Positions 221 through 40,627 of a stretch of DNA of 64,000 nt are shown in pieces. Positions within the stretch are counted from its first letter, which is position 1, and each line of letters begins with the position of its first letter. The notes under the pieces are model-generated. The model worked only from the letters and a program-made list of their open reading frames with translations, was not told where the DNA came from and searched no databases. The position numbers and the translations under genes are program-made. Source of the stretch: Enterobacteria phage Aplg8; the sequence record NC_054902.1. One strand, written 5' to 3'.

Positions 221-406
221 TTATTTACCAATTAAAGTTTCAATATAAGAATCAAGATTTACTTTAGCTTCTTCCATAAGAGTTTTGTATTTAATCTTGT
301 TAGCATGTCCGGAGAAAGCTGATTCATCAATAATTGTTGATGTATGAACAGCTTTACTATACGTCTCAATTAATTCTCTTAATTTAAAAGCCTGCTCACT
401 TGTCAT
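221..406 (-). CDS. hypothetical protein (61 aa)
   Basis: ORF track; GAGGAG Shine-Dalgarno upstream of ATG at 404-406. Confidence 0.55.
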   Translation of the reverse strand: MTSEQAFKLRELIETYSKAVHTSTIIDESAFSGHANKIKYKTLMEEAKVNLDSYIETLIGK

Positions 407-538
407 TACATACTCCTCTGAATCATATCAATAATGTTGTTTACCAAATTATAAGTAAACATTGGGTAATTATATTGAATCATCACATACACAACAAACA
501 AAACTTTCATTCTCTTCTCCTTGGCAGTTGACAAGATT

Positions 539-568
539 ACTATACCATAACCTTGCCAACTTGTAAAC
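539..568 (-). promoter_or_regulatory. T4-type early (sigma70) promoter, -35 GTTTAC / -10 TATAGT
   Basis: Minus strand reads GTTTAC-N18-TGGTATAGT; same architecture recurs at six other sites in window. Confidence 0.45.
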
Positions 569-733
569 CATTAAATGACGTTTTCGATAAAATTCTGAAG
601 CTTTGTATGAGCATCAACCATGATTTTCAATTCTTCTTTAGCGAAAGCCGTACCTCTTTCCCGAGCAGAATACTCATAGTCAGAAACTGCATTAGCATAT
701 TCTTCAATTAGTTTCATTAAAAACATCTGCTTT

Positions 734-928
734 TCAGTTTTCATTATTCCACCTAATCATTTCAAGATATTGAACTAACTTAGCTTTAGATTTATCCAAA
801 TCCTTTTTAGCTGCTTCTATACCGTCGTATGAATATCCTTCACAATGCTCAACTGCTAATTGGTATGAATCTATTTCAATATCACGTGCTAATTTAATGA
901 TTTTTTCAAACTGTTCGCGTGTTAGCAT
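734..928 (-). CDS. hypothetical protein (64 aa)
   Basis: ORF track; co-directional early gene block. Confidence 0.5.
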   Translation of the reverse strand: MLTREQFEKIIKLARDIEIDSYQLAVEHCEGYSYDGIEAAKKDLDKSKAKLVQYLEMIRWNNEN

Positions 929-930
929 AC

Positions 931-1134
931 TTAAACTCTCGTATTATGATCGATAATTTCATCAAGAAACATATCTAACGCTTCTAAAGCATTATCAACT
1001 TTAGCTTCAAGTTCATCAATACCTTTATTTGCAATGCCTGACGAAAACCAAGCAAAGTCACTAAGTTCCTCATCTGCTTTACGAATTAAAGCTACCAATT
1101 CCTTAATTTTATCCGCTTGTTCGATACTAATCAT
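931..1134 (-). CDS. hypothetical protein (67 aa from SD-preceded ATG)
   Basis: ORF track 931..1170; internal ATG at 1132-1134 preceded by GGTGGA and coupled (TGATG) to upstream stop. Confidence 0.5.
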   Translation of the reverse strand: MISIEQADKIKELVALIRKADEELSDFAWFSSGIANKGIDELEAKVDNALEALDMFLDEIIDHNTRV

Positions 1135-1367
1135 TATTCCACCACATATGAAAGAGAGAATATTGCACACGCCATGTGAGTTGCAACTTCATCACACATA
1201 TTATAACGTTTCTTAAGAAATTCTACAAGTTCTTCACTAGTAACTTCATCCATGTCGACGAAAAAATCACCATTAATGATGACGTAGATATTTCCTTCTT
1301 GATTGAGTGCTTCAATTTTCATGATGTTCTCCTCTTTATCCGATAGTTGTATAGTACCACAGCTCAA
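1134..1367 (-). CDS. hypothetical protein (77 aa)
   Basis: ORF track; early promoter directly upstream. Confidence 0.55.
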
Positions 1368-1380
1368 ACGGAAAGTAAAC
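1351..1380 (-). promoter_or_regulatory. T4-type early promoter
   Basis: Minus strand GTTTAC-N18-TGGTACTAT immediately upstream of ORF starting at 1367. Confidence 0.45.
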
Positions 1381-1390
1381 CGGTAAAATG

Positions 1391-1412
1391 AAAAAAGTCT
1401 CCCGAAGGAGAC
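1391..1412 (-). terminator. rho-independent terminator
   Basis: Hairpin GTCTCC-CGAA-GGAGAC followed by T6 on minus strand, downstream of the 1418..1804 gene. Confidence 0.6.
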
Positions 1413-1417
1413 TAATG

Positions 1418-1804
1418 TTATTCGAGGGAAAGAAGATACTTACTCTGGTAAAACATTCCAGTAATATCATCTATCGTGCTTTGGATGGCTGGAGGCATTT
1501 CTTTATAAATGCTGTTAGATTGGTCTAGTATGTGATCAATCATTTTAATTGTGTCGGTAGGAAGTTTACTGGCATCTGGAATTGAAGGTGTGTATTTTCT
1601 ACCAGAATACCCCAAATATTGCTCACCAAATTTATCAATCAAATCTGGCAACTCGGAGAAAATAAAATCGTATGCTTTGTGTCTAGCATAACTTTTAGTT
1701 TCAAAATGTGCAGAATGAAAATAAGCTTGTGCAGCCATTAATAAACCTAAGTATTCATCTGCCTTTGAAGGTTTTCCACTTTGTGAAAAGTCGCTGAATT
1801 TCAT
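1418..1804 (-). CDS. hypothetical protein (128 aa), immediately downstream of rI
   Basis: ORF track; 4-nt overlap with rI stop. Confidence 0.6.
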
Positions 1805-2094
1805 TCAGTCTCCAATTTAATGTTCATAATTCTAGCGTATGATTGTGCCATCTCCGCGCCTCGTTCTATACATTCAAAATCAGAAGAGCACGGGTCATTT
1901 TTATAGGTCGTTCTCATAAAACTATAGAATTGTTCAGACGATTCTACGCTTTTATTTTCAAAAAGCATATAAACGTGCCTAATACCAGATTCCATAAATT
2001 TATCAAAATGAGGATCGACATTCGCTTCAATCGATGGAGATAAAACAAATGACAATCCTAGCATGGCAAATAGTGCCGTTGCTTTTAAGGCCAT
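1801..2094 (-). CDS. rI: lysis inhibition regulator RI (97 aa, N-terminal signal-anchor)
   Basis: Translation MALKATALFAMLGLSFVLSPS... recognised as T4 RI; hydrophobic N-terminus, 97 aa. Confidence 0.75.
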   Translation of the reverse strand: MALKATALFAMLGLSFVLSPSIEANVDPHFDKFMESGIRHVYMLFENKSVESSEQFYSFMRTTYKNDPCSSDFECIERGAEMAQSYARIMNIKLETE

Positions 2095-2106
2095 AAAGGC
2101 CTCCTA

Positions 2107-2319
2107 TCATTTTTGTCCTGTATTTACTTTATGCCGATGCACGGCCTTAACTTTATCAAGGTATTTTTCAAAATTTCGCAATCTAGTATAGTCTGCCGGA
2201 GATTGGTTGAGTGATACTTCTCGACGCAAAGCTGAAATGATATTTCCAACTTCCCTACGAATTTCATCTAATTGAAGCACAGTAAGATTGCGAAGTTGCT
2301 TTTCAGTTAATTGTAGCAT
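2107..2319 (-). CDS. hypothetical protein (70 aa) between tk and rI
   Basis: ORF track; position matches T4 rI.-1. Confidence 0.6.
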
Positions 2320-2361
2320 ATATACCCCTTTAGTTAGATAAACCTATTTATAACTTTTGCA

Positions 2362-2943
2362 CTAACCAAGCTTTTTAGTTAATTCATTCCAATGTTTTCT
2401 GCACAAAGAAACATAAATTTCATCACCAATACAGATTTGATTACCTTCTTTAACTGGTGTTCCATCTTCCATTAATCGAGCTGTCATAATCGCTTTTTTG
2501 CCGCAATGACAAACTGCCTTTAGTTCAATAAGTTTATCTGCAATCGCTAAAAGTTCTTTAGAACCTTCAAACAATTTTCCAGCGAAATCAGTCCTTAATC
2601 CATAAGCCATAACAGGAACATTATATGTATCAACAATTCGGCTTAATTGGTGCACCTGTTCAGTTTTTAAAAACTGAGCTTCATCTACAAATACGCAATG
2701 AATATCTTTTTGTGCTTCAGCCCATTTATAGAACTCGAAAATATCCATATCATCTGTAATAATATTCGCTTCCTGTTTAATTCCAATGCGAGAAACAACT
2801 TCACAGACAGAATCGCGAGTATCAATAGCAGGCTTAAGAACTAATACACTCATTCCACGTTCTTTATAATTATGTGCAGCAGTCAAAAGAGAAGCAGATT
2901 TTCCAGCATTCATTGCTGCATAAGTAAAAATTAAACTCGCCAT
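2362..2943 (-). CDS. tk: thymidine kinase
   Basis: 193 aa; P-loop NAGKSASL, CxxC...CxxC zinc motif, typical type II TK. Confidence 0.95.
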   Translation of the reverse strand: MASLIFTYAAMNAGKSASLLTAAHNYKERGMSVLVLKPAIDTRDSVCEVVSRIGIKQEANIITDDMDIFEFYKWAEAQKDIHCVFVDEAQFLKTEQVHQLSRIVDTYNVPVMAYGLRTDFAGKLFEGSKELLAIADKLIELKAVCHCGKKAIMTARLMEDGTPVKEGNQICIGDEIYVSLCRKHWNELTKKLG

Positions 2944-2952
2944 ATCACCTTC

Positions 2953-3138
2953 TTAAAACGTATTCACATAAGCTATTAATTCATTTTCTTTCTTATCAAA
3001 CCGATCAGCAAATTCTTCCTGCTGTTCGGGAGATAGCGGGCCGTATTCATCATAAAAGGTGTTTGCTTCTGCATGCTCATCTAGAAGTTCATGGATAAGC
3101 TCAAACAATTTATCTTTTTGTTCTTTGCTTAGGCTCAC
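2953..3138 (-). CDS. hypothetical acidic protein (61 aa)
   Basis: ORF track; tightly packed upstream of tk. Confidence 0.55.
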   Translation of the reverse strand: MSLSKEQKDKLFELIHELLDEHAEANTFYDEYGPLSPEQQEEFADRFDKKENELIAYVNTF

Positions 3139-3307
3139 AGTATGTCAATCCCCAAAAGTTTTAAAATGACTCGTTTCTGATTCATAACCGCTACGATTGA
3201 ATGACCGTTGGGGTCTTTTTGACCCGATCCAATTATAAATCCTTTTTGTGCAGAAAGTTCAATCAAAACATCAAGTTCACGTAATAATTGATATTTTAAA
3301 TCATCAT

Positions 3308-3535
3308 TCATTTTGGTTTACCTTCTTTAACGAAATCAGGATAAGGATAAAATCCCGAATAAAATCCTTCACCTTTATGATTGATGCATCCTTTATTAGA
3401 ACAATAGCACCAATAATCGAAATCACAAGCCATTTCATCATTACATAAAGCAAAAACAACAGGCCACTTACACTTTTCACAGTGGGCATTTTTAAGAATA
3501 CTAGTTTGGCTCATAACCATGTAACCTTTAAGCAA
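3308..3535 (-). CDS. hypothetical Cys-rich small protein (75 aa or shorter)
   Basis: ORF track; about nine Cys including CEKC and CYC motifs. Confidence 0.5.
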   Translation of the reverse strand: MLKGYMVMSQTSILKNAHCEKCKWPVVFALCNDEMACDFDYWCYCSNKGCINHKGEGFYSGFYPYPDFVKEGKPK

Positions 3536-3723
3536 TATTCTTCTACATGTTGTTTACGACCTTTCTTATCAATAAAGGTATATTCAACGAATGTTCCAAT
3601 GTAGTCTTTATCTACATCATGTGGACTATTAATTGGACATTTAGTACGGCAAATGCGTTCCCATTGACGAATAATTTCCACTTTGTTTTTAGGATCAAAC
3701 GGATGTGGGTAATGTACTTTCAT
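3511..3723 (-). CDS. hypothetical protein (70 aa)
   Basis: ORF track. Confidence 0.5.
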   Translation of the reverse strand: MKVHYPHPFDPKNKVEIIRQWERICRTKCPINSPHDVDKDYIGTFVEYTFIDKKGRKQHVEEYCLKVTWL

Positions 3724-4174
3724 AATCCACCACTATTAAATCAATATCAGGAGTAAACATGTCGATTAATTTAGAAACCTTATCCCAATCGCCGCCAGCA
3801 ATACCACAACCTATGCGTGGAATGTAAATTACTGGTTTAAACAAAAGGGTTTCTGCCTGTAGATTTAATTCTATCATGCAGTTTACTAAAGCACCATAAT
3901 CAAGATTAGGACCTGGTTCGTATTGCGTATACAAGTTATAACATATGCCAAAACCATTAGGTTTATGTTTAAAAACAATAGACATATCGCCTAATTTATC
4001 ACGAGAACCGTACTCAGTAGTGGTTTTATCTATTTCTAAAATTTTGGGATAGGCTCTTGCTAATTGACCAGCTACACCACTGCCCATTGTATGAAAACAG
4101 TTACACCCATGCGCAATAATATTACCTTCAAGAAAGAGGGCGACAATATCGCCCTTGATATATTTTACAATCAT
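3695..4174 (-). CDS. macro domain (ADP-ribose binding/processing) protein
   Basis: 159 aa; motifs GDIV...NIIAHGCNC...GSGVAGQL and IPRIGCGIAGGDWDKV match macro-domain signature. Confidence 0.75.
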   Translation of the reverse strand: MIVKYIKGDIVALFLEGNIIAHGCNCFHTMGSGVAGQLARAYPKILEIDKTTTEYGSRDKLGDMSIVFKHKPNGFGICYNLYTQYEPGPNLDYGALVNCMIELNLQAETLLFKPVIYIPRIGCGIAGGDWDKVSKLIDMFTPDIDLIVVDYESTLPTSV

Positions 4175-4512
4175 CTAGTACTCAATCCTCGATTATAAGA
4201 ATCTACCAAACGGTTAACCATTGAATGACAAGCGGCTTTATCTTTTTCCTCCGCAACTGAACATTCTAAGGTATTCCACTTTTTAGCATATCGTTTTAAC
4301 AATGTATCGTTTTTGTATCTGCTTGATTTATCTCTTTCTCCGTCTTTATATGCATATATTAATTTCTGCGCAAATTCAGCTTGGCATGCTTTATTTTTCC
4401 CGCAATAATCCGCTGCAGTACGGTTTACATACTCTCTAATTTCAGTATATGATGTATCTGCTAACGCAGAAAATGAAATTAATCCTATACATAAAACCAA
4501 AATTTTAGTCAT
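4171..4512 (-). CDS. secreted Cys-containing protein (113 aa)
   Basis: N-terminal signal peptide MTKILVLCIGLISFSALA; four Cys in mature part; 4-nt overlap with macro gene. Confidence 0.65.
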   Translation of the reverse strand: MTKILVLCIGLISFSALADTSYTEIREYVNRTAADYCGKNKACQAEFAQKLIYAYKDGERDKSSRYKNDTLLKRYAKKWNTLECSVAEEKDKAACHSMVNRLVDSYNRGLSTR

Positions 4513-5050
4513 TTACTATTTCCAAAAGTTTATTATTTTTAAGGTAATTAGCCTTTTCTAGGACTTCAGAAGCATATTTAGAACCTGCTTTAACATTCCA
4601 TCCCGAATTATAAGAGGATATTGCTTTTCTTATATCGCCCTTATGTATATTTAACCAATAAGAAAGTTCAATGTACGCCCAGGAAGCTGAATTGGACCGT
4701 TTATTCAACATTCTTTTTATTTCAGCATCGGTCATATTATAACCAAGTTCCTTAACTCTTGCTCGCATAGTAGGCAAATAATTTTGGAACATTCCGTAGG
4801 CGTGATGCTTTGGTTTAGATTTTAAATTAACTCCGCCAGAGCTTTCTTGCCATAAAATGGCAGCCATTATATGACCTAATCCGCTCTTGTGGATATTTTT
4901 GTGTGTTTTATATTTTCCATCCTTAGAAAATTGTTCCCCGAATTGATACGCGTAACGCATGTTATCGAGTTGGACATTACTGAAAGTATGCTCGGAGCTA
5001 TGTGCCATCATTGAAATGGCCAATAGACCAGCGAGTAGTGCTTTTCTCAT
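4505..5050 (-). CDS. secreted lytic transglycosylase (SLT) domain protein
   Basis: 181 aa; signal peptide MRKALLAGLLAISMMAHS; SLT motif WQESSG...AYGMFQ. Confidence 0.7.
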   Translation of the reverse strand: MRKALLAGLLAISMMAHSSEHTFSNVQLDNMRYAYQFGEQFSKDGKYKTHKNIHKSGLGHIMAAILWQESSGGVNLKSKPKHHAYGMFQNYLPTMRARVKELGYNMTDAEIKRMLNKRSNSASWAYIELSYWLNIHKGDIRKAISSYNSGWNVKAGSKYASEVLEKANYLKNNKLLEIVND

Positions 5051-5057
5051 GTTTACC

Positions 5058-5519
5058 TCATTGAGTTTTAATTACTGCTTTAGAAGCCTTTCCTGGTAAA
5101 CGACGACTGTTGATAATTGCCATCCTGCATTGAAGTGACGGGTTTTTGAACTTCTCATTAGGCTTACAAACTGTAAATCCAAGCCAAAGATTTCCATCTG
5201 TGATTTCTAAACGTCCAGGACGATATTCAACCCCATCAATAAAATCCTCGTCAATGTCAGGACGCGGAGGCATACTCAGGAATTCATTAACTTCTAAAAC
5301 ATGGTCTTTTATTTTATGGAATAATTCAAAAACGTATGTCTCATCAATCTCCCGTTGAATTGCACGATCAAGAAGATGCTGAGAATATTTTAGATGAAAC
5401 GATGAGACCCCTGCTGCTTTTGACGCCTCACGAATCTCATTGTTAATTTGACGAAACTCCGACTCAAAGTGACGACGAAGCTTATTTCGACGGATAAAAA
5501 CTTCTGTATTGATAGTCAT
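5058..5519 (-). CDS. regB: RegB site-specific endoribonuclease
   Basis: 153 aa; translation MTINTEVFIRRNKLRRHFE... recognised as T4 RegB. Confidence 0.85.
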   Translation of the reverse strand: MTINTEVFIRRNKLRRHFESEFRQINNEIREASKAAGVSSFHLKYSQHLLDRAIQREIDETYVFELFHKIKDHVLEVNEFLSMPPRPDIDEDFIDGVEYRPGRLEITDGNLWLGFTVCKPNEKFKNPSLQCRMAIINSRRLPGKASKAVIKTQ

Positions 5520-5546
5520 GTTATTCTCCTCTTAACTGATAGAAAA

Positions 5547-5576
5547 ATTATACCACAGTCAAGAGGAAAAGTAAAC
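5547..5576 (-). promoter_or_regulatory. T4-type early promoter for regB
   Basis: Minus strand GTTTAC...TTGACTGTGGTATAAT with extended -10 TGnTATAAT, about 30 nt upstream of regB ATG. Confidence 0.6.
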
Positions 5577-5578
5577 AG

Positions 5579-5899
5579 TTATTCTTTAAATCTAATCAAT
5601 TTATTCATAGACTTTGAAACTTCGGCACGAACCTCATGTAGATTTTTGAGCTGTTCAAGACGCTGCGTATAGTAAGCAATTTCATCTTCTTCGAGACAGT
5701 CCTGCGAATCTTCTTTAAGATAACGTGCATAGTCCTGAAAAGCGTTACGGATTACTTCTTGGAAGTCATCAAGACTTTGAATTTTCTTAGGAGCGGCAGA
5801 TACACGACGAGGTGCAGTATAATACTCATAACCAAACCCTGCGCTTAATTGAGCCATTAGTATTTTTCCTCTGGTTGGAACACTGCACGACAAGCCCAC
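5579..5899 (-). CDS. hypothetical protein (up to 106 aa)
   Basis: ORF track. Confidence 0.5.
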
Positions 5900-6159
5900 A
5901 TACTGGCTTCTTTGAGTTTCGTTTTAGCAATAGTTAACTGATCGAGGCTTTCGGCGTAATTCTTCGCGAGTTCATCATCTTCACAGCTATCAAATGCTTC
6001 CCAAAATTCATCGTATAAAGCATCAAAGATAAGTCCTAAACGAACTTCAGCGTCTTTAATAGCATTTACTTTACCGATTTTTTCGTCGGTATGTGGCTTA
6101 TAACCTTTAATATCTTCAATCATATTTGACTTCCTCACCAGTGCATAAATCATATTCAA
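5857..6159 (-). CDS. hypothetical protein (up to 100 aa)
   Basis: ORF track. Confidence 0.5.
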
Positions 6160-6337
6160 CTAAACGAATAGGTTCATGAATGCCATATCCTTGAACAGAA
6201 ATTTCTGTCGTAGGATAAATTCCATCAATATCACCCATATTCCAGGCTTCATTAAATTGCTGTTCGCCTGAATTACTAAACCATTCTGCGAAAGCATTTA
6301 GCACATCTTTAGAACCTTCAATAATTATCTTTGCCAT
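6116..6337 (-). CDS. hypothetical protein (73 aa)
   Basis: ORF track. Confidence 0.5.
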   Translation of the reverse strand: MAKIIIEGSKDVLNAFAEWFSNSGEQQFNEAWNMGDIDGIYPTTEISVQGYGIHEPIRLVEYDLCTGEEVKYD

Positions 6338-6699
6338 TACAGACTCTCAGTAAAGGTACGAGCGATAACGTCGCGCTGCTGTTCCGGAGTCAGAGAGTTA
6401 AAGCGAACTGCATAACCGGATACACGGATGGTCAGCTGCGGATATTTTTCCGGATGCTTAACTGCATCTTCCAGAGTTTCACGACGCAGAACGTTAACGT
6501 TCAGGTGTTGACCACCTTCAATTTTAACTGTAGGCTGTGGCTCAATTTCAATTTCACGGGCATGCAAACCGTAGAAAATTTCTGGGTCTACAAAAGAGTC
6601 CTCTTTAAAGGTTTTAGAGACAATAATTCGTGCTTGAATACCATCTTCAAAATAAATAGTGCCTTTGTGTGTGCCTTCAAGAATTTGATATGCTTTCAT
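6337..6699 (-). CDS. autonomous glycyl-radical domain protein (GrcA/YfiD-like)
   Basis: 120 aa; C-terminal [24 protein letters not shown] matches glycyl radical signature RVSGY. Confidence 0.8.
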
Positions 6700-6706
6700 A
6701 TAAACC

Positions 6707-7087
6707 TCAATTAGAAAATAAATTTATCCAAGATTGTTCTTTAATTAAAAATGGCTCAGAATCATATGCCATTAAACTCTGTGTGATTAGTCCTTTAAAA
6801 GGACCATCAATAAATTCCATGGTAAAATATGGAATTTTATTCATTAGCCGTGCATTAGGAGCAGTACACAAAACTCTGCATCCTTTGAATACGCCTTTTT
6901 GTAATTTGTATTGCTTAGGATAAAATTCGCTCAAGACGTTGTTATTTGCCAAAATTTCAAAATGATTTACCAATTTATTTTTAATAGTTTTTGGCGAAAA
7001 ATAAAGATATTCGAAAAGCTGAGTGTCTGTCATCATTGCATTCCGATTACGAAAAACTGTGGACGAGTAATACCACCAATACAACAT
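6707..7087 (-). CDS. hypothetical protein (126 aa or shorter)
   Basis: ORF track; likely true start at internal Met near 7036. Confidence 0.5.
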
Positions 7088-7620
7088 TTACTATTACAGC
7101 AGTAGTGTACAGTGTCAATATGGACACTATAAATCTTATCCATATCAGGAGATTTGACAGGCTCATCAATTATATACAAAATTCGCGAAAGCGATAAACC
7201 TCTGAACTTGCTTCCTTTATTACCAATAAAACTGCGCACAGAATCAGTAAATAAACGAAAACGTATATCATCATTAGAATAACGCGAAAATTCCTTTTTA
7301 ATGTTATTTGCAGAAATTTTAGCGTAAGCTGAAGTATTAGAAAGAACGATAACTGTTCCGCCATCATACAACCAATTAGCAGCAAAGTTAGTCACAGCAA
7401 TTGATTTACCGGATTGACGTCCACCATCTAGTCGAAGTGTGCAATACTGTTTAAGTAATTCTTCAAATGGCGGGATATATTCGTTTTTACAAATTTCTTC
7501 TACTCTAGCATCAGAATGGTGTGTAAAAGCATTCATCAGGGATAGATAAGGACCAGTTAAAAATGTTCTCATTTTATTCTCTCTAGGTTTGGGCCATTCC
7601 GTGGCGCATGAATTGTCCAT
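7033..7620 (-). CDS. P-loop NTPase with C-terminal Cys cluster
   Basis: Walker A GGRQSGKS, Walker B ILYIIDEP, C-terminal HYCCNSKCC; no T4 counterpart recognised. Confidence 0.7.
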   Translation of the reverse strand: MDNSCATEWPKPRENKMRTFLTGPYLSLMNAFTHHSDARVEEICKNEYIPPFEELLKQYCTLRLDGGRQSGKSIAVTNFAANWLYDGGTVIVLSNTSAYAKISANNIKKEFSRYSNDDIRFRLFTDSVRSFIGNKGSKFRGLSLSRILYIIDEPVKSPDMDKIYSVHIDTVHYCCNSKCCIGGITRPQFFVIGMQ

Positions 7621-7725
7621 TTCTGTATTTACCCATTACCGCACTTGGACTCGACCTTATTACAGGTTGGCGGGAATCCCTCACAGAATCATGAGGTCCA
7701 GGTTGTTCCCATATTTCTTATTTGC

Positions 7726-8199
7726 TTATTTGAACGATTTAACGTACTGAATAGAACCTTTACTATTCACAAAGGCAATTTTACCATTTTTATTATACAT
7801 TGTAGCAGTACGTTGATAGCCATAAGTTTGTTTACCAGATTGATAACCAACTAATGCAAAATTATCTTCACCCATTTTATTCTGTTTAGCGCGAATGCGT
7901 TCATGGCCATGTGCCATAAGAACCTTAGCATCACCTGTTGCAATGGATCGACGAGTTTTTTCATCTTCAACTGTATTAACAAAGTTGTCAAATGAATCAA
8001 ATTTAGCATGAGATTTATTATACAGTTTTCCATCTACTGCATAATTATATCCCTGCACATCCATCTCAACTTCTGTACCATCATCCAATACAGCAGTGAT
8101 TTTTTGACCTTTTTTAAATTTCAAAAGATCAGTAAAAGATTCAGCAATAATTTGAGAATTAATAGCTGCTTCAGTAATAAATTCTTGATATGTTTTCAT
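7726..8199 (-). CDS. capsid internal protein (CTS-bearing), at the ipIII position
   Basis: 157 aa; N-terminal MKTYQEFITEA capsid-targeting sequence; directly downstream of e. Confidence 0.75.
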   Translation of the reverse strand: MKTYQEFITEAAINSQIIAESFTDLLKFKKGQKITAVLDDGTEVEMDVQGYNYAVDGKLYNKSHAKFDSFDNFVNTVEDEKTRRSIATGDAKVLMAHGHERIRAKQNKMGEDNFALVGYQSGKQTYGYQRTATMYNKNGKIAFVNSKGSIQYVKSFK

Positions 8200-8259
8200 G
8201 TGTATCCTTTAAATGTAAAAATTTTAATTAATAATTTGGCTCTTCAAATAACTGTGAAT

Positions 8260-8289
8260 ATACTATCACAATTCTAGGAGAAAGTAAAC
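8260..8289 (-). promoter_or_regulatory. T4-type early promoter
   Basis: Minus strand GTTTAC-N18-TGTGATAGTAT upstream of internal protein gene. Confidence 0.45.
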
Positions 8290-8293
8290 AACT

Positions 8294-9262
<969 letters not shown>

Positions 9263-9281
<19 letters not shown>

Positions 9282-9751
9282 TCGGTGATAAAATTATTTA
9301 AATTTTGAGTATATTTCTTTTCATCAAAAATCTTTTGCTGCCTACGTAAACGCCATGGCATTTCAATGAACACGCACCATATTCCTGATAGTACTGCTGC
9401 TGTAAAAATATTAACAAGTATAATTAAAAGAATCCAATCTTCCGTTCTGCCTACTGGACTTTCTCCAAAGAAGCAAAATACAAATGATGTCACAGGAAAA
9501 CTAATAATATACCACAGAATCATAATCTTATCTGTGAACCAATCAGTGTTCGTTAATTTAGCGCGACCATTATGAATACACACGAATTTATCATCTGTTG
9601 CAGTAGATGGCTTAACTGGTTGATATCCCATTCTAAACTCCCTAATCAGCAAATTTTTCATATCTTCGGAACAGCCATTCCAGTCAACTCTATCAACTGA
9701 AATGCCATCATCCCCATCATCTAAATCATACCAGCGAGTTTTTAAAATCAT
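9263..9751 (-). CDS. small membrane protein, paralog family member (162 aa)
   Basis: Two hydrophobic helices; C-terminal NNFITECRKLK motif shared with neighbours. Confidence 0.65.
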
Positions 9752-10122
9752 TTGATTTTCCTACAATCATTCACGAATTCTTTCATTGATTCATTTTCAA
9801 TATAAGACATGTAGTTATTATATTCTTTTAATTGTATTTTGTAATCCTTTTTTCTTTGCCAATTTATTTTAAAATTATCATAATGAAAATATAAAATAAT
9901 ACCAAAGAATGAAAATAATGAAATCGCTATAGTATAATGAAGTTCACTCCAAACTTCTATTATATCTACTATACCGCTGACATTACTGCGGATGTTTAAA
10001 ATAATACAGTCAATCATTAATCCAATAAGACTACCAGCAAGAGCTGCAGCCAACGCCACAGCAAAAATTAAAAATGACTCAGAAAAAGAATATTTGACTT
10101 TATTTAGTTTTGGCTTTTGCAT
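9748..10122 (-). CDS. small membrane protein, paralog family member (124 aa)
   Basis: Two hydrophobic helices; C-terminal MKEFVNDCRKIK. Confidence 0.65.
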   Translation of the reverse strand: MQKPKLNKVKYSFSESFLIFAVALAAALAGSLIGLMIDCIILNIRSNVSGIVDIIEVWSELHYTIAISLFSFFGIILYFHYDNFKINWQRKKDYKIQLKEYNNYMSYIENESMKEFVNDCRKIK

Positions 10123-10517
10123 CGTGATTCCTTAACAAATTTCATAATTTCGTTAAATTCATGCATATCTAATTTAAGCTGGTGTTCCTTTTTAATCTTT
10201 TTACACTGAGCTTTCCATTCACGTACACGTTTACGATAATGCCTTCCTTGATACCAATATCCTACCCAATTTACAGGTACCAATAAAAATGGAACTACTA
10301 ATGGAAGAATTAATACTAACAAAAATATTACGCCAGATTCAATATCAGTCATAAAGTCTATAACCATTCCAACAACCAATAGAATTACAAATGATATAGC
10401 TGTCACAGGACCTATTAATACATCAGTAGGAATTAGCTGACGCTTTAGTTCATACTTCACAGGTTTACTTGGAAGGTATAGTGATGGCTTTGACATATTC
10501 TCTACATTCCTTAACAA
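10104..10517 (-). CDS. small membrane protein, paralog family member (137 aa)
   Basis: Two hydrophobic helices; C-terminal MKFVKESRCK. Confidence 0.65.
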   Translation of the reverse strand: MLRNVENMSKPSLYLPSKPVKYELKRQLIPTDVLIGPVTAISFVILLVVGMVIDFMTDIESGVIFLLVLILPLVVPFLLVPVNWVGYWYQGRHYRKRVREWKAQCKKIKKEHQLKLDMHEFNEIMKFVKESRCKSQN

Positions 10518-11070
10518 ATTTTTCTAATAATAAATCGCTTTCAAAATTAGGATTTTCCACGAATTTATCAAAAAGATCATCAACGATAGTTAAGATATTC
10601 TTTTTATTAAGAATACGCTTATTTTCATATTTTGTTTCAGAGTCAACTATAAGAGTAAAGAAATATTTCTTTCCCTGAAATTTTACCGTAGTATCAATAT
10701 AGAACAAATTTGACTTTTGTAAATTACGTTTAAACCATGCGTCACTTAAACTGTAAACGCCAAGATAATCATAATCGTCATTTAAATAACAAACTGTCCA
10801 TTCAGGAGAAATGAAATCAGTAAATTCAACATCAAAATCACACGTCAATGAATGAATTGATTCAATACTTTTAATGAGTATTCCAGGACGTATTAAAGAC
10901 TTTTTACCTTTATAAAATCCAGAAAGACTTTCATCAGTTTCGTATGAAGACCCCCAATAGTAATTACGTCCTTCTGCCATACGTTTAAGAGCATTTAGTA
11001 ATTGATCTGGAACATCAACCTGTCTTTGGAACTCTTCAAACATTGAATTGAAATCACTTTGCATTTTCAT
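10465..11070 (-). CDS. hypothetical protein (201 aa) sharing the C-terminal motif
   Basis: C-terminal EKFVKECREYVK resembles the three downstream membrane proteins. Confidence 0.6.
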   Translation of the reverse strand: MKMQSDFNSMFEEFQRQVDVPDQLLNALKRMAEGRNYYWGSSYETDESLSGFYKGKKSLIRPGILIKSIESIHSLTCDFDVEFTDFISPEWTVCYLNDDYDYLGVYSLSDAWFKRNLQKSNLFYIDTTVKFQGKKYFFTLIVDSETKYENKRILNKKNILTIVDDLFDKFVENPNFESDLLLEKFVKECREYVKAITIPSK

Positions 11071-11111
11071 TCCTATTTACTCCAAGTAATAGGGGCCGAA
11101 GCCCCTTATCA

Positions 11112-11705
11112 TTATTTCAGAGAATTAATGTATTCCTGAACATCGGCAGAGGTAGTTTCAACCCCAGAAATATTACCGTTAAAGGTTTCAACTCGGGCAA
11201 GAGTATCTTCAATATCAACCTTAGTCAGTGCTGCAATTTCAACTACATCATCAGCAGTACTAATTCCGAGGGCATTCGCTGCGCGAGTTTCACGGATATA
11301 TTCCAATTTAACCGCAAGTTCTTGACGAGCATCATCCAATTCAACTACTTTCTTGGCGATTTCAATTCGCATTTCAGCATACCCATCAGCTTTAGTAGTC
11401 AGCTGTTCAGCTGTTCGACGATATAGCAAGCCGAGTTTAGCATGCATTGTTACATCTTGACCTTCAGAAAGAAGCTTGCGAATTTCACGCTCTTTTGATT
11501 CAGCCTGTTTATTCTTTTCAATAACAAGTTCACGAATACGTTTTTCTTCATTAATAGATTTAACAGAAGCAGTTTTTAGATCTTTAATTTTATCAAGTAG
11601 TTTTGCTGCTGCAGCAGTATACTGTTCTTCAACAGATAGATTTTTAGCCATAGCAGAACCAAGTTTAGTGCGAATAAACTCAACAATTTTCTTCAAAGTG
11701 TTCAT
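11112..11705 (-). CDS. coiled-coil protein (197 aa)
   Basis: ORF track; charged, heptad-like composition; e.6 position. Confidence 0.65.
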
Positions 11706-11748
11706 AGTATTTCCTTAGGTTGATTAAGATTTAAAATCCGTGAAAGTA

Positions 11749-11925
11749 TTATACTCCGGATAGTTTGTAAACTATTTCAACATCGCCTTTTGCTGCTTTA
11801 TAACCTTCAGCCCAAGATATAACCGAGTTTTTATCTGAAGATTCAAATTCTGGCATTGGGCTTTCGCCAATGTTCACACAATATGTTTCTTCATTTTCGT
11901 CGAACCAAATAATTAAAGTAGTCAT
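11749..11925 (-). CDS. small hypothetical protein (58 aa)
   Basis: Hand-translated: GGAG SD then ATG at 11923-11925, open to TAA at 11749; below ORF-track size cut-off. Confidence 0.45.
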   Translation of the reverse strand: MTTLIIWFDENEETYCVNIGESPMPEFESSDKNSVISWAEGYKAAKGDVEIVYKLSGV

Positions 11926-11993
11926 TTATTTCTCCGTTTCTATATTTGTTTTGATAAGTCTATAATAACACCGTCCTTGGTGTTTGTACACAA

Positions 11994-12269
11994 TTATTTC
12001 ATATTATTGAAATATTCTTCTGCGATTTCGTCGTTATCATGGTAAACTTTAGAAGACAGTTTAACATAACCTTCAGCAGTGAACATGTTAATCACAACCT
12101 TTACAGTATACCACTGACCGTCTTCATTACCCATTACTGCATAAGTTTCAAACATCGGATGATCAGGACCGATAACTTTAATATCATTCACCGTACGACC
12201 AAAATCTTCTGAAACGCATTTCATAAAGAAGTTGAACAGTTCGCCGTAATTATCCATTTCGTTCTCCAA
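11994..12269 (-). CDS. hypothetical protein (91 aa)
   Basis: ORF track; early promoter upstream. Confidence 0.6.
   Translation of the reverse strand: MENEMDNYGELFNFFMKCVSEDFGRTVNDIKVIGPDHPMFETYAVMGNEDGQWYTVKVVINMFTAEGYVKLSSKVYHDNDEIAEEYFNNMK

Positions 12270-37486: not shown

Positions 37487-40627
<3,141 letters not shown>

Follow-up and report, generated by a model that had tools for sequence, protein, structure and literature searches.

A 64,000-nucleotide (nt) stretch of Enterobacteria phage Aplg8 DNA (NC_054902.1), here called the window, carries the two adjacent small genes vs.8 and vs.7, headed by a conserved leader RNA. All features of this locus lie on the minus strand. Window bases 6300 to 8300 are 99.8% identical to Shigella phage Sf22 and 97% to 99% identical to AR1, RB18, RB32, and RB14 (all Tequatrovirus), and the first 11.7 kb of the window is 99.3% identical to Sf22 positions 331 to 12000, Sf22 being the closest complete genome. 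The first-pass annotation of the locus had listed two open reading frames (ORFs) of 195 and 126 amino acids (aa). Both are present, at 7033..7620 and 6707..7087, respectively, as maximal ORFs and not as gene models. The pair is a rediscovery of T4 vs.8 and vs.7, which had been annotated previously, and a description of Vs.8 as a terminase-like ATPase already exists.

The true start of vs.8 is almost certainly M17 of the 195-aa ORF (ATG 7572), giving a protein of 179 aa (7033..7572; MRTFLTG... to ...FFVIGMQ; stop TGA at 7035-7033). This placement is based on family conservation, which begins exactly there (among 19 aligned homologues, 40% to 94% identical, 17 begin at or no more than one residue from the Met of MRTFLTG), on the match to PHROG 1488 (E value, 5.4e-79), which covers ORF residues 19 to 195 and profile positions 2 to 177 of 177, and on the annotations of Sf22 and FJ1, in both of which the gene is 540 nt long. 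In Sf22, it is described as "similar to T4 Vs.8 but lacks the N-terminus." A Shine-Dalgarno-like GAGAG was read from the sequence at 7579..7583, 6 nt upstream of the ATG, and homologous leaders have AGAG or GGAA-type purine runs at the same position. The vs.7 gene starts at ATG 7036 and encodes 109 aa (6707..7036; MMTDTQLF...), its start codon overlapping the vs.8 stop codon (ATGA, 7036-7033). Vs.7 matches T4 Vs.7 (NP_049731) at 107 of 109 positions, beginning from the internal MMTDTQ of the 126-aa ORF, and aligns with the full length of the phrog_2049 profile (E value, 4.6e-54). The two Vs.7 proteins are orthologues with an identical ATGA overlap with vs.8 and no notable difference.

The window Vs.8 is likewise orthologous to T4 Vs.8 (NP_049732), with 98.3% identity to residues 40 to 219 by BLASTP and tblastn, and the two share their gene neighbors, the Walker motifs, and a Cys cluster, whereas the T4 reference model has 39 additional N-terminal residues (219 aa in total). 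By tblastn, 35 of these additional residues match the window in another frame. Alignment of T4, FJ1, and the window revealed an 8-nt indel, T4 having the extra CTTATAGA, which creates the T4 frame (window 7573-7684 versus T4 L003:5294-5413). As a result of this indel, an upstream ATG is in frame with vs.8 in T4, and the T4 reference thereby translates most of the leader RNA as the first 39 residues of Vs.8. Since the upstream frame is closed in the window and in most relatives, the 219-aa T4 model is very probably wrong at its N terminus and probably an annotation artifact. The gene models fixed here (179 aa for vs.8 and 109 aa for vs.7) matter for the expression and modeling of Vs.8, which has attracted interest as a trigger of the immune sensor Avs2.

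The 128 nt preceding vs.8 (7589..7716), located between the Ip4 stop codon and the vs.8 ribosome-binding site and overlapping codons 1 to 11 of the 195-aa maximal ORF, form, as judged from comparative sequence analysis, a conserved multihelix RNA with a pseudoknot. The structure was derived from 35 IMG/VR loci and was used to build covariance model R1 (148 positions, 32 pairs). It consists of P1 (7706-7710 with 7672-7676), the P2 hairpin (7691-7696 with 7679-7684), a three-way junction of P3 (7668-7670 with 7633-7635), P4 (7664-7667 with 7654-7657), and P5 (7649-7650 with 7641-7642) containing an invariant GGUAA, a pseudoknot (7699-7701 with 7623-7625) that joins the strand directly after P1-5' to the strand after P3-3', P6, and the P7 hairpin GCCA-NGGAA-UGGC (7602-7605 with 7593-7596). 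R1 matched the window at 7589-7716 with 112.6 bits (E value, 3.5e-32) and T4 at L003:5318-5445 (minus strand) with 111.7 bits. Each locus gave one strong match, except for L021 and L032 with two each, and there was no further match in the 64-kb window or in the Sf22 stretches L004 to L006 (about 102 kb).

Several lines of evidence support the structure. The 130 to 190 nt upstream of vs.8 are conserved at the nucleotide level across genera whose Vs.8 proteins share only about 40% identity, and the reading frame of the conserved blocks differs from genus to genus. In an alignment of 38 distinct sequences, which was fitted to the R1 model, 90% of the cells were paired, versus 80% in shuffles and 23% to 45% with slid partners. 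Compensatory double changes were seen in 16 of the 32 pairs, a number reached by none of 500 shuffles, and the covariation score was 0.266 versus 0.104. RNAalifold applied to an unfitted MAFFT alignment independently recovered P1, P4, P5, and P7. For the pseudoknot, whose 3' strand is out of register across leader types, duplex energies in cis and in trans were compared by permutation in place of a column-wise count. The cis duplexes averaged -5.2 kcal/mol and the trans duplexes -2.5 kcal/mol, a difference not reached in any of 10,000 permutations of this test, which ignores phylogeny. At least eight complementary variants of the pseudoknot were found (CCG/CGG, ACCG/CGGU, CGCCGA/UCGGUG, ACAC/GUGU, CGC/GCG, ACCA/UGGU, CUCGA/UCGAG, and CCUGR/UCAGG). 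G-U pairs occur on the vs.8-sense strand only, indicating that the folded molecule would be the vs.8-sense RNA. Folding energy alone was uninformative (z-score, +1.0). The invariant unpaired parts are the junction GGUAA, the P4 loop, AUGGAC, and the P7 loop, and the last two contain invariant GGA motifs that are 18 nt apart in the window (7616-7618 in AUGGAC and 7598-7600 in the P7 loop). In 33 of the 35 distinct GGA-bearing leaders, the spacing is 17 to 19 nt, and it is exactly 18 nt in 24 of them. By eye only, the P1 3' strand was also seen to have a possible alternative partner in the P7 loop.

In the loci of T-even enterobacterial phages that were examined, the leader generally occurs once per genome, is about 130 to 170 nt long, and begins 0 to 5 nt past the stop codon of whatever gene is upstream. 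The core RNA motif was found in 29 IMG/VR contigs, with one match in each; all but one of these contigs are roughly 115 to 180 kb long, and most carry vs.8. Two kinds of variants were observed. In three loci (L021:1210-1470, L032:1217-1477, and L043:1239-1497), the 5' domain (P1 to P5 and the pseudoknot strand) is duplicated in tandem ahead of a single 3' module; R1 detects both copies in L021 and L032, and the degenerate second copy of L043 was seen by eye only. In the Jiaodavirus-type loci (L009:1925-2074 and 2382-2476; L027 to L029 and L040), an ip gene lies between the full leader and vs.8, as if it had been inserted into the leader, and directly ahead of vs.8 there is a second copy of the 3' GGA/P7 module alone. 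No further copies of the P7 module were found in the window. In non-T4-type leaders, a sigma70-like sequence, TTTACA-N16-AATTAT, overlaps the strand between P3 and the pseudoknot. Searches against Rfam 15 gave no relevant match for window positions 7400 to 7900 (E value of ≤10) or for 10 diverse loci (E value of ≤5), and a literature search found no paper describing an RNA motif upstream of vs.8.

The leader was compared with known RNA classes. It resembles the hepatitis delta virus (HDV)-like ribozymes in the order of its strands (P1-5', pseudoknot-5', hairpin, P1-3', branched domain, and pseudoknot-3') and in its nested double pseudoknot. However, it lacks the 3-bp P3 with L3/P1.1, having instead a 6-bp hairpin (T4 type) or a long interrupted stem (others), and the joining strand of T4 and the window, UAAAUA, has no C before the pseudoknot 3' strand and thus no invariant J4/2 catalytic C. 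The Rfam HDV models did not match the leader, and this candidate was rejected: the topology fits, but the defining details fail. The leader also has features that are generically riboswitch-like, namely, a covarying multihelix 5' domain, invariant unpaired nucleotides, and tandem copies in some genomes. A promoter and terminator scan of the window leader found nothing, and no clear Shine-Dalgarno-sequestering helix was identified.

The 3' module, in turn, resembles the leaders bound by CsrA/RsmA in having a GGA in a short hairpin loop closed by CA...UG and a second GGA 18 nt upstream. The CsrA consensus obtained by systematic evolution of ligands by exponential enrichment is RUACARGGAUGU, the optimal site spacing is roughly 18 nt, and the second GGA can be 10 to 63 nt away. 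Unlike in CsrA/RsmA leaders, the hairpin GGA is located about 25 to 30 nt before the start codon and not over the Shine-Dalgarno sequence, and known CsrA targets have nothing that corresponds to the large 5' domain with P1 to P5 and the pseudoknot. The GGA pair is, by analogy, a candidate site for a CsrA/RsmA dimer, and we regard it as a lead. In the most economical reading, the leader would act in cis and most likely control the translation or processing of the vs.8 message. We give even odds that it is a real and functional RNA, regulatory or catalytic, of a kind not described before.

By its motifs, Vs.8 is a small stand-alone P-loop nucleoside triphosphatase (NTPase) of the additional strand conserved E (ASCE) type. 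The first-pass annotation had proposed a P-loop NTPase with a C-terminal Cys cluster on the basis of the motifs GGRQSGKS, RILYIIDEP, and HYCCNSKCC, all of which were found in the 195-aa ORF. The P-loop NTPase assignment is supported, both Walker motifs being intact. The Walker A motif (P-loop; G50-G-R-Q-S-G-K-S57; 7402..7425) lies in a segment, D49 to K56, that is invariant in the 19 homologues, and in the Walker B motif with the catalytic Glu (L132-Y-I-I-D136-E137; 7162..7179), L132, I134, I135, and E137 are invariant, as is the following P138, and D136 is at least 90% conserved. R113, R124-G125, and L128 are also invariant, as are F173, G177, and Q179 in the C-terminal FFVIGMQ. R124 lies about 12 residues before Walker B, at the position where terminases such as P74-26 TerL carry a trans-acting arginine finger. 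The Cys cluster (C158-C-N-S-K-C-C164; 7081..7101) is present as described, whereas its importance for the family is not supported: the loop that contains it is variable and lineage specific, and the cluster does not qualify as a family motif. The family alignment has no invariant Cys column, and in homologues with ≤58% identity the cluster is replaced by unrelated residues. The cysteines are missing in the Yersinia MHG19-like, Dhakavirus, and Klebsiella phage homologues, and the CC..CC pattern is restricted to close T4 relatives. A metal site at this cluster was rejected because the cysteines are not conserved, and the Pfam "Conotoxin" match to them (18.1 versus a cutoff of 23.2) is spurious. 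Selection thus appears to preserve the catalytic residues of Vs.8 and not its eye-catching cysteines.

The AlphaFold2 model of Vs.8 (predicted local distance difference test [pLDDT] score, 81; predicted template modeling score, 0.83) has a five-stranded parallel sheet flanked by helices, and its sole segment with a pLDDT score of <50, residues 160 to 167, is within the Cys cluster loop. Vs.8 matched phrog_2, the terminase large subunit, with an E value of 1.3e-5. The window itself encodes a genuine large terminase elsewhere (gp17, 610 aa; 38792-40624), and in an hhalign comparison of the Vs.8 family with this gp17 (E value, 0.0025), the P-loop (Vs.8 residues 50 to 56 with gp17 residues ~160 to 167), the RG motif, and the Walker B Asp-Glu (IIDE/YIDE) were in register. 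The Arg-containing P-loop (RQxGK[ST]) and the hhhhDE Walker B motif, aligned in the gp17 register, are those of terminase ATPases. Compared to the 610-aa gp17 (PDB 2O0H; Terminase_6N), the 179-aa Vs.8 lacks the nuclease domain and subdomain II (lever), and it terminates after the fifth core strand, where gp17 continues. In a recent preprint, T4-like terminases were reached from Vs.8 in five PSI-BLAST iterations, and a high structural similarity to the T4 terminase ATPase was reported (bioRxiv 10.64898/2026.04.30.721860). These comparisons suggest a distant relationship, with Vs.8 corresponding to a minimal version of the ATPase core of T4-type large terminases; Vs.8 is not itself a terminase.

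Several search results weigh against such a relationship. The Pfam matches of Vs.8 (AAA_14 and Terminase_6N) were below threshold, the latter with 12.5 bits versus a cutoff of 22 (E value, 0.12), and the probability of the hhalign match to gp17 was only 12%. No PDB chain matched the family profile at an E value of <0.06, all matches being at chance level. A search of 1.84 billion representatives with the Vs.8 hidden Markov model returned 50 proteins, none of which was longer than 259 aa, and hence no terminase-length relative. Furthermore, there were no annotated relatives among the 50, and Pfam scans of ten distant relatives gave nothing above threshold. NCBIfam and PADLOC yielded no significant match to Vs.8, the best PADLOC match being HerA (E value, 0.028). 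When the model was compared with BFVD, the nearest folds outside the family were uncharacterized proteins of 144 to 172 aa from large myoviruses and jumbo phages, with TerL appearing first at rank 46. These neighbors came from Proteus phage phiP4-3, Vibrio phage JSF10, Aeromonas phages Aes012 and phiAS5, Stenotrophomonas phage Mendera, Acinetobacter phage 133, and Pseudomonas phages 201phi2-1, PhiPA3, and Phabio. The model comparison is a hint that stand-alone mini P-loop proteins form a broader class in large phages. Because its catalytic residues are under purifying selection, Vs.8 most likely still binds and hydrolyzes nucleoside triphosphates, probably as an oligomer.

Vs.7 is a 109-aa orphan protein. 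In agreement with the first-pass annotation, which had found the partner ORF to be of no recognizable family, Vs.7 had no match in Pfam (a local copy without PF26834, the family with which Vs.7 relatives are tagged in the protein database), NCBIfam, or PADLOC, and a seven-sequence profile matched no PDB chain or Pfam family. PHROG 2049, to which it belongs, has no known function. Two database searches returned only 10 clusters. The conserved core of Vs.7 is Y..GPFKG...P..LM...P.F..EFI.G..KG....SL..Y. Vs.7 homologues follow vs.8 in Dhakavirus, Jiaodavirus, and Karamvirus, and the 4-nt ATGA overlap of the two genes recurs in T4, QL01, and UTI-K4, which argues for translational coupling. Through such coupling, Vs.7 would be made in a fixed proportion with Vs.8, and the two proteins probably work together.

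The locus is the start of a conserved T-even block, vs.8 - vs.7 - vs.6 ... regB, which is unchanged from T4. The gene order of the T4 reference is regB, vs.3, vs.4, vs.5, vs.6, vs.7, vs.8, denV, ipII, ipIII, and e, and that of the window is regB, vs.3, vs.4, a 73-aa vs.5-like ORF, vs.6, vs.7, vs.8, Ip4, and e. Thus, vs.8 and vs.7 are in their native position, and it is the adjoining denV+ipII+ipIII block that is swapped for a single gene, Ip4 (7726..8199), which encodes an internal head protein (Pfam DUF7412; E value, 3e-95; phrog_3155, "internal virion protein") and is so annotated in AR1, RB32, and RB14. In T4, AR1, FJ1, Sf22, PG7, UTI-K4, and QL01, vs.8 comes first after the variable ip/denV segment and is followed by vs.7, vs.6 ... 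regB; the order e, variable ip/denV genes, vs.8, vs.7 ... regB is kept in Karamvirus PG7, Jiaodavirus UTI-K4, and Dhakavirus QL01, and synteny of the vs.8 locus extends to Gelderlandvirus. By tblastn, Vs.8 was found in 1,008 and Vs.7 in 928 of 50,697 phage records, all of them T-even-type phages of enterobacteria. The T4 reference gives vs.5 as 58 aa, in a version that is frameshifted compared with the 73-aa ORF of the window (6116-6337). Since it is the 73-aa form that is conserved in SEA1, QL01, UTI-K4, and PG7 (the PG7 annotation fuses it to vs.7), T4 vs.5 looks like a frameshift variant. GenBank labels of these genes are inconsistent: vs.7 and vs.8 are called "endoribonuclease" in some records, a label probably carried over from regB, and vs.8 is called "terminase large subunit" in Klebsiella phages Roth67, Roth76, and Roth80 and in Morganella phage vB_Mm5.

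Downstream of vs.8 and vs.7, the same cluster contains the counterdefense genes vs.4 and vs.3 (5582-6123; Acb2 and TadIV-1, respectively). The vs.4 product matches Pfam Acb2_Tad1_hairpin (E value, 1.4e-19), and the vs.3 product shares 98% identity with TadIV-1, the Vs.3 protein of T4 and an anti-type-IV-Thoeris sponge (PMC13243611). From this context, in which vs.8 and vs.7 head a cluster holding Acb2 and TadIV-1, the module would be expected to have a nonessential, early accessory function in phage-host conflict, rather than in DNA repair or packaging. T4 Vs.8 has been reported to be toxic when coexpressed with the terminase sensor EcAvs2 (bioRxiv 10.64898/2026.04.30.721860). In this respect, it resembles Ksap1 and Ksap2, nonterminase activators of Avs2, which are also small and taxon restricted, have a terminase-ATPase-like sheet, and trigger Avs2 on coexpression; they differ in being from Dhillonvirus and Stephanstirmvirinae, and according to the description in the preprint, Walker A and B are kept by Vs.8 only (bioRxiv 10.64898/2026.04.30.721860).

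Other explanations of the two genes were considered. The first-pass annotation had placed the ORFs in the denV/ipII position, and in that reading a novel two-gene cassette, comprising an NTPase with a metal-binding Cys cluster and a partner, would have replaced denV and ipII, perhaps compensating for the loss of DenV. The motifs were read correctly, and its statement that no ORF resembles DenV holds for the interval and beyond, as T4 DenV gave no tblastn match (E value of ≤1) either in the 64-kb window or across the other 102 kb of Sf22. The claim of novelty, however, was mistaken. In T4, the vs.7-vs.8 pair directly precedes denV, is arranged as in the window, and shares 98% identity with the two ORFs, which are thus strongly homologous to known conserved T4 genes of this interval. 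FJ1 carries vs.8, vs.7, Ip4, and denV together, and vs.8 coexists with denV also in PG7 and QL01. Across genomes, the regB-e interval shows vs.8 and vs.7 to be widespread in T-even genera and not a replacement cassette, and the cysteines required of a metal site are not conserved. The comparison with T4 refutes the replacement reading, to which we assign next to no probability. A toxin-antitoxin-like or host shutoff pair, in which a toxic NTPase would be neutralized or targeted by its small coupled partner, is suggested by two small genes that overlap and are co-conserved. However, T4 vs.3 to vs.8 were cloned in E. coli, together and each singly, with plasmids built to express each protein from the DNA upstream of vs.8, and a cloning failure was reported solely for the other T4 fragment, Part II (PMC13243611), which argues against Vs.8 being a strong toxin. 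In addition, neither protein has a significant PADLOC match, and Gelderlandvirus SEA1 retains vs.8 without vs.7, making such a pair very unlikely. Finally, Vs.8 could be noncatalytic and imitate the structure of the terminase ATPase domain, titrating or diverting host sensors of the large terminase (Avs type, Upx) as a decoy or competing for terminase partners, with its Walker motifs retained merely because the bound ATP belongs to the recognized surface. Such a role would suit a protein that consists of a minimal five-strand core only and is encoded within a counterdefense cluster; the AlphaFold 3 model in the preprint puts Vs.8 in the EcAvs2 pocket with a bridging ATP, and its authors suggest that nonterminase activators may be antidefense proteins (bioRxiv 10.64898/2026.04.30.721860). 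Yet with EcAvs2, Vs.8 triggers toxicity instead of blocking it, the catalytic Glu137 and Arg113/Arg124 are invariant, although a pure binding mimic would not need them, and many large phages encode small ATPase-like proteins of a similar kind. We consider the mimic unlikely.

An alternative was also weighed for the leader, namely, that the sequence upstream of vs.8 acts as DNA (a promoter, a regulator site, or a recombination junction) or encodes the true Vs.8 N terminus and is not an RNA structure. The T4 reference annotates the 39 extra N-terminal codons, the T4 upstream DNA has been used as "the promoter of vs.8" (PMC13243611), type B/C leaders contain the sigma70-like sequence as we read it (e.g., L018:1432-1462), and the start of the element 0 to 5 nt after any upstream gene is like a recombination boundary. 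However, the 8-nt indel between T4 and the window breaks the frame and the conserved blocks differ in frame between genera, leaders of the T4/window type lack the promoter-like hexamers, and half of the pairs have compensatory double changes, with strand-specific G-U pairs and a covarying pseudoknot. A function as DNA or as coding sequence is thus improbable.

Taken together, the observations are likely to be best explained by T4-type vs.8 and vs.7 genes in place, encoding a terminase-like NTPase and a coupled partner that would have a role in phage-host conflict and be headed by a regulatory leader RNA. Some points speak against parts of this explanation. The leader is absent from the distant vs.8 loci of Morganella phage vB_Mm5 and L045 and is therefore not obligatory for vs.8, vs.7 is absent from SEA1, and the AlphaFold2 model of Vs.7 (pLDDT score, 53) is unusable, being too poor for a fold search. 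The authors of the preprint leave open what Vs.8 does and whether it matters during infection (bioRxiv 10.64898/2026.04.30.721860), and activation of Avs2 cannot be the selected function of Vs.8, because it would harm the phage. A full chain of events, in which the leader senses a small molecule or an RNA-binding protein of the host or the phage (e.g., CsrA) and gates the production of Vs.8 and Vs.7 acting against terminase-sensing immunity, appears doubtful in its entirety, and we give it a low probability.

Lack of denV belongs to the kinds of variation already known for this hyperplastic segment, and the finding of the two ORFs in itself changes very little. Of the whole analysis, the leader RNA is the item most worth following. 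Its confirmation would mean that the best-studied phage carries an elaborate, conserved RNA structure, unnamed so far, at the head of a cluster with known counterdefense genes.

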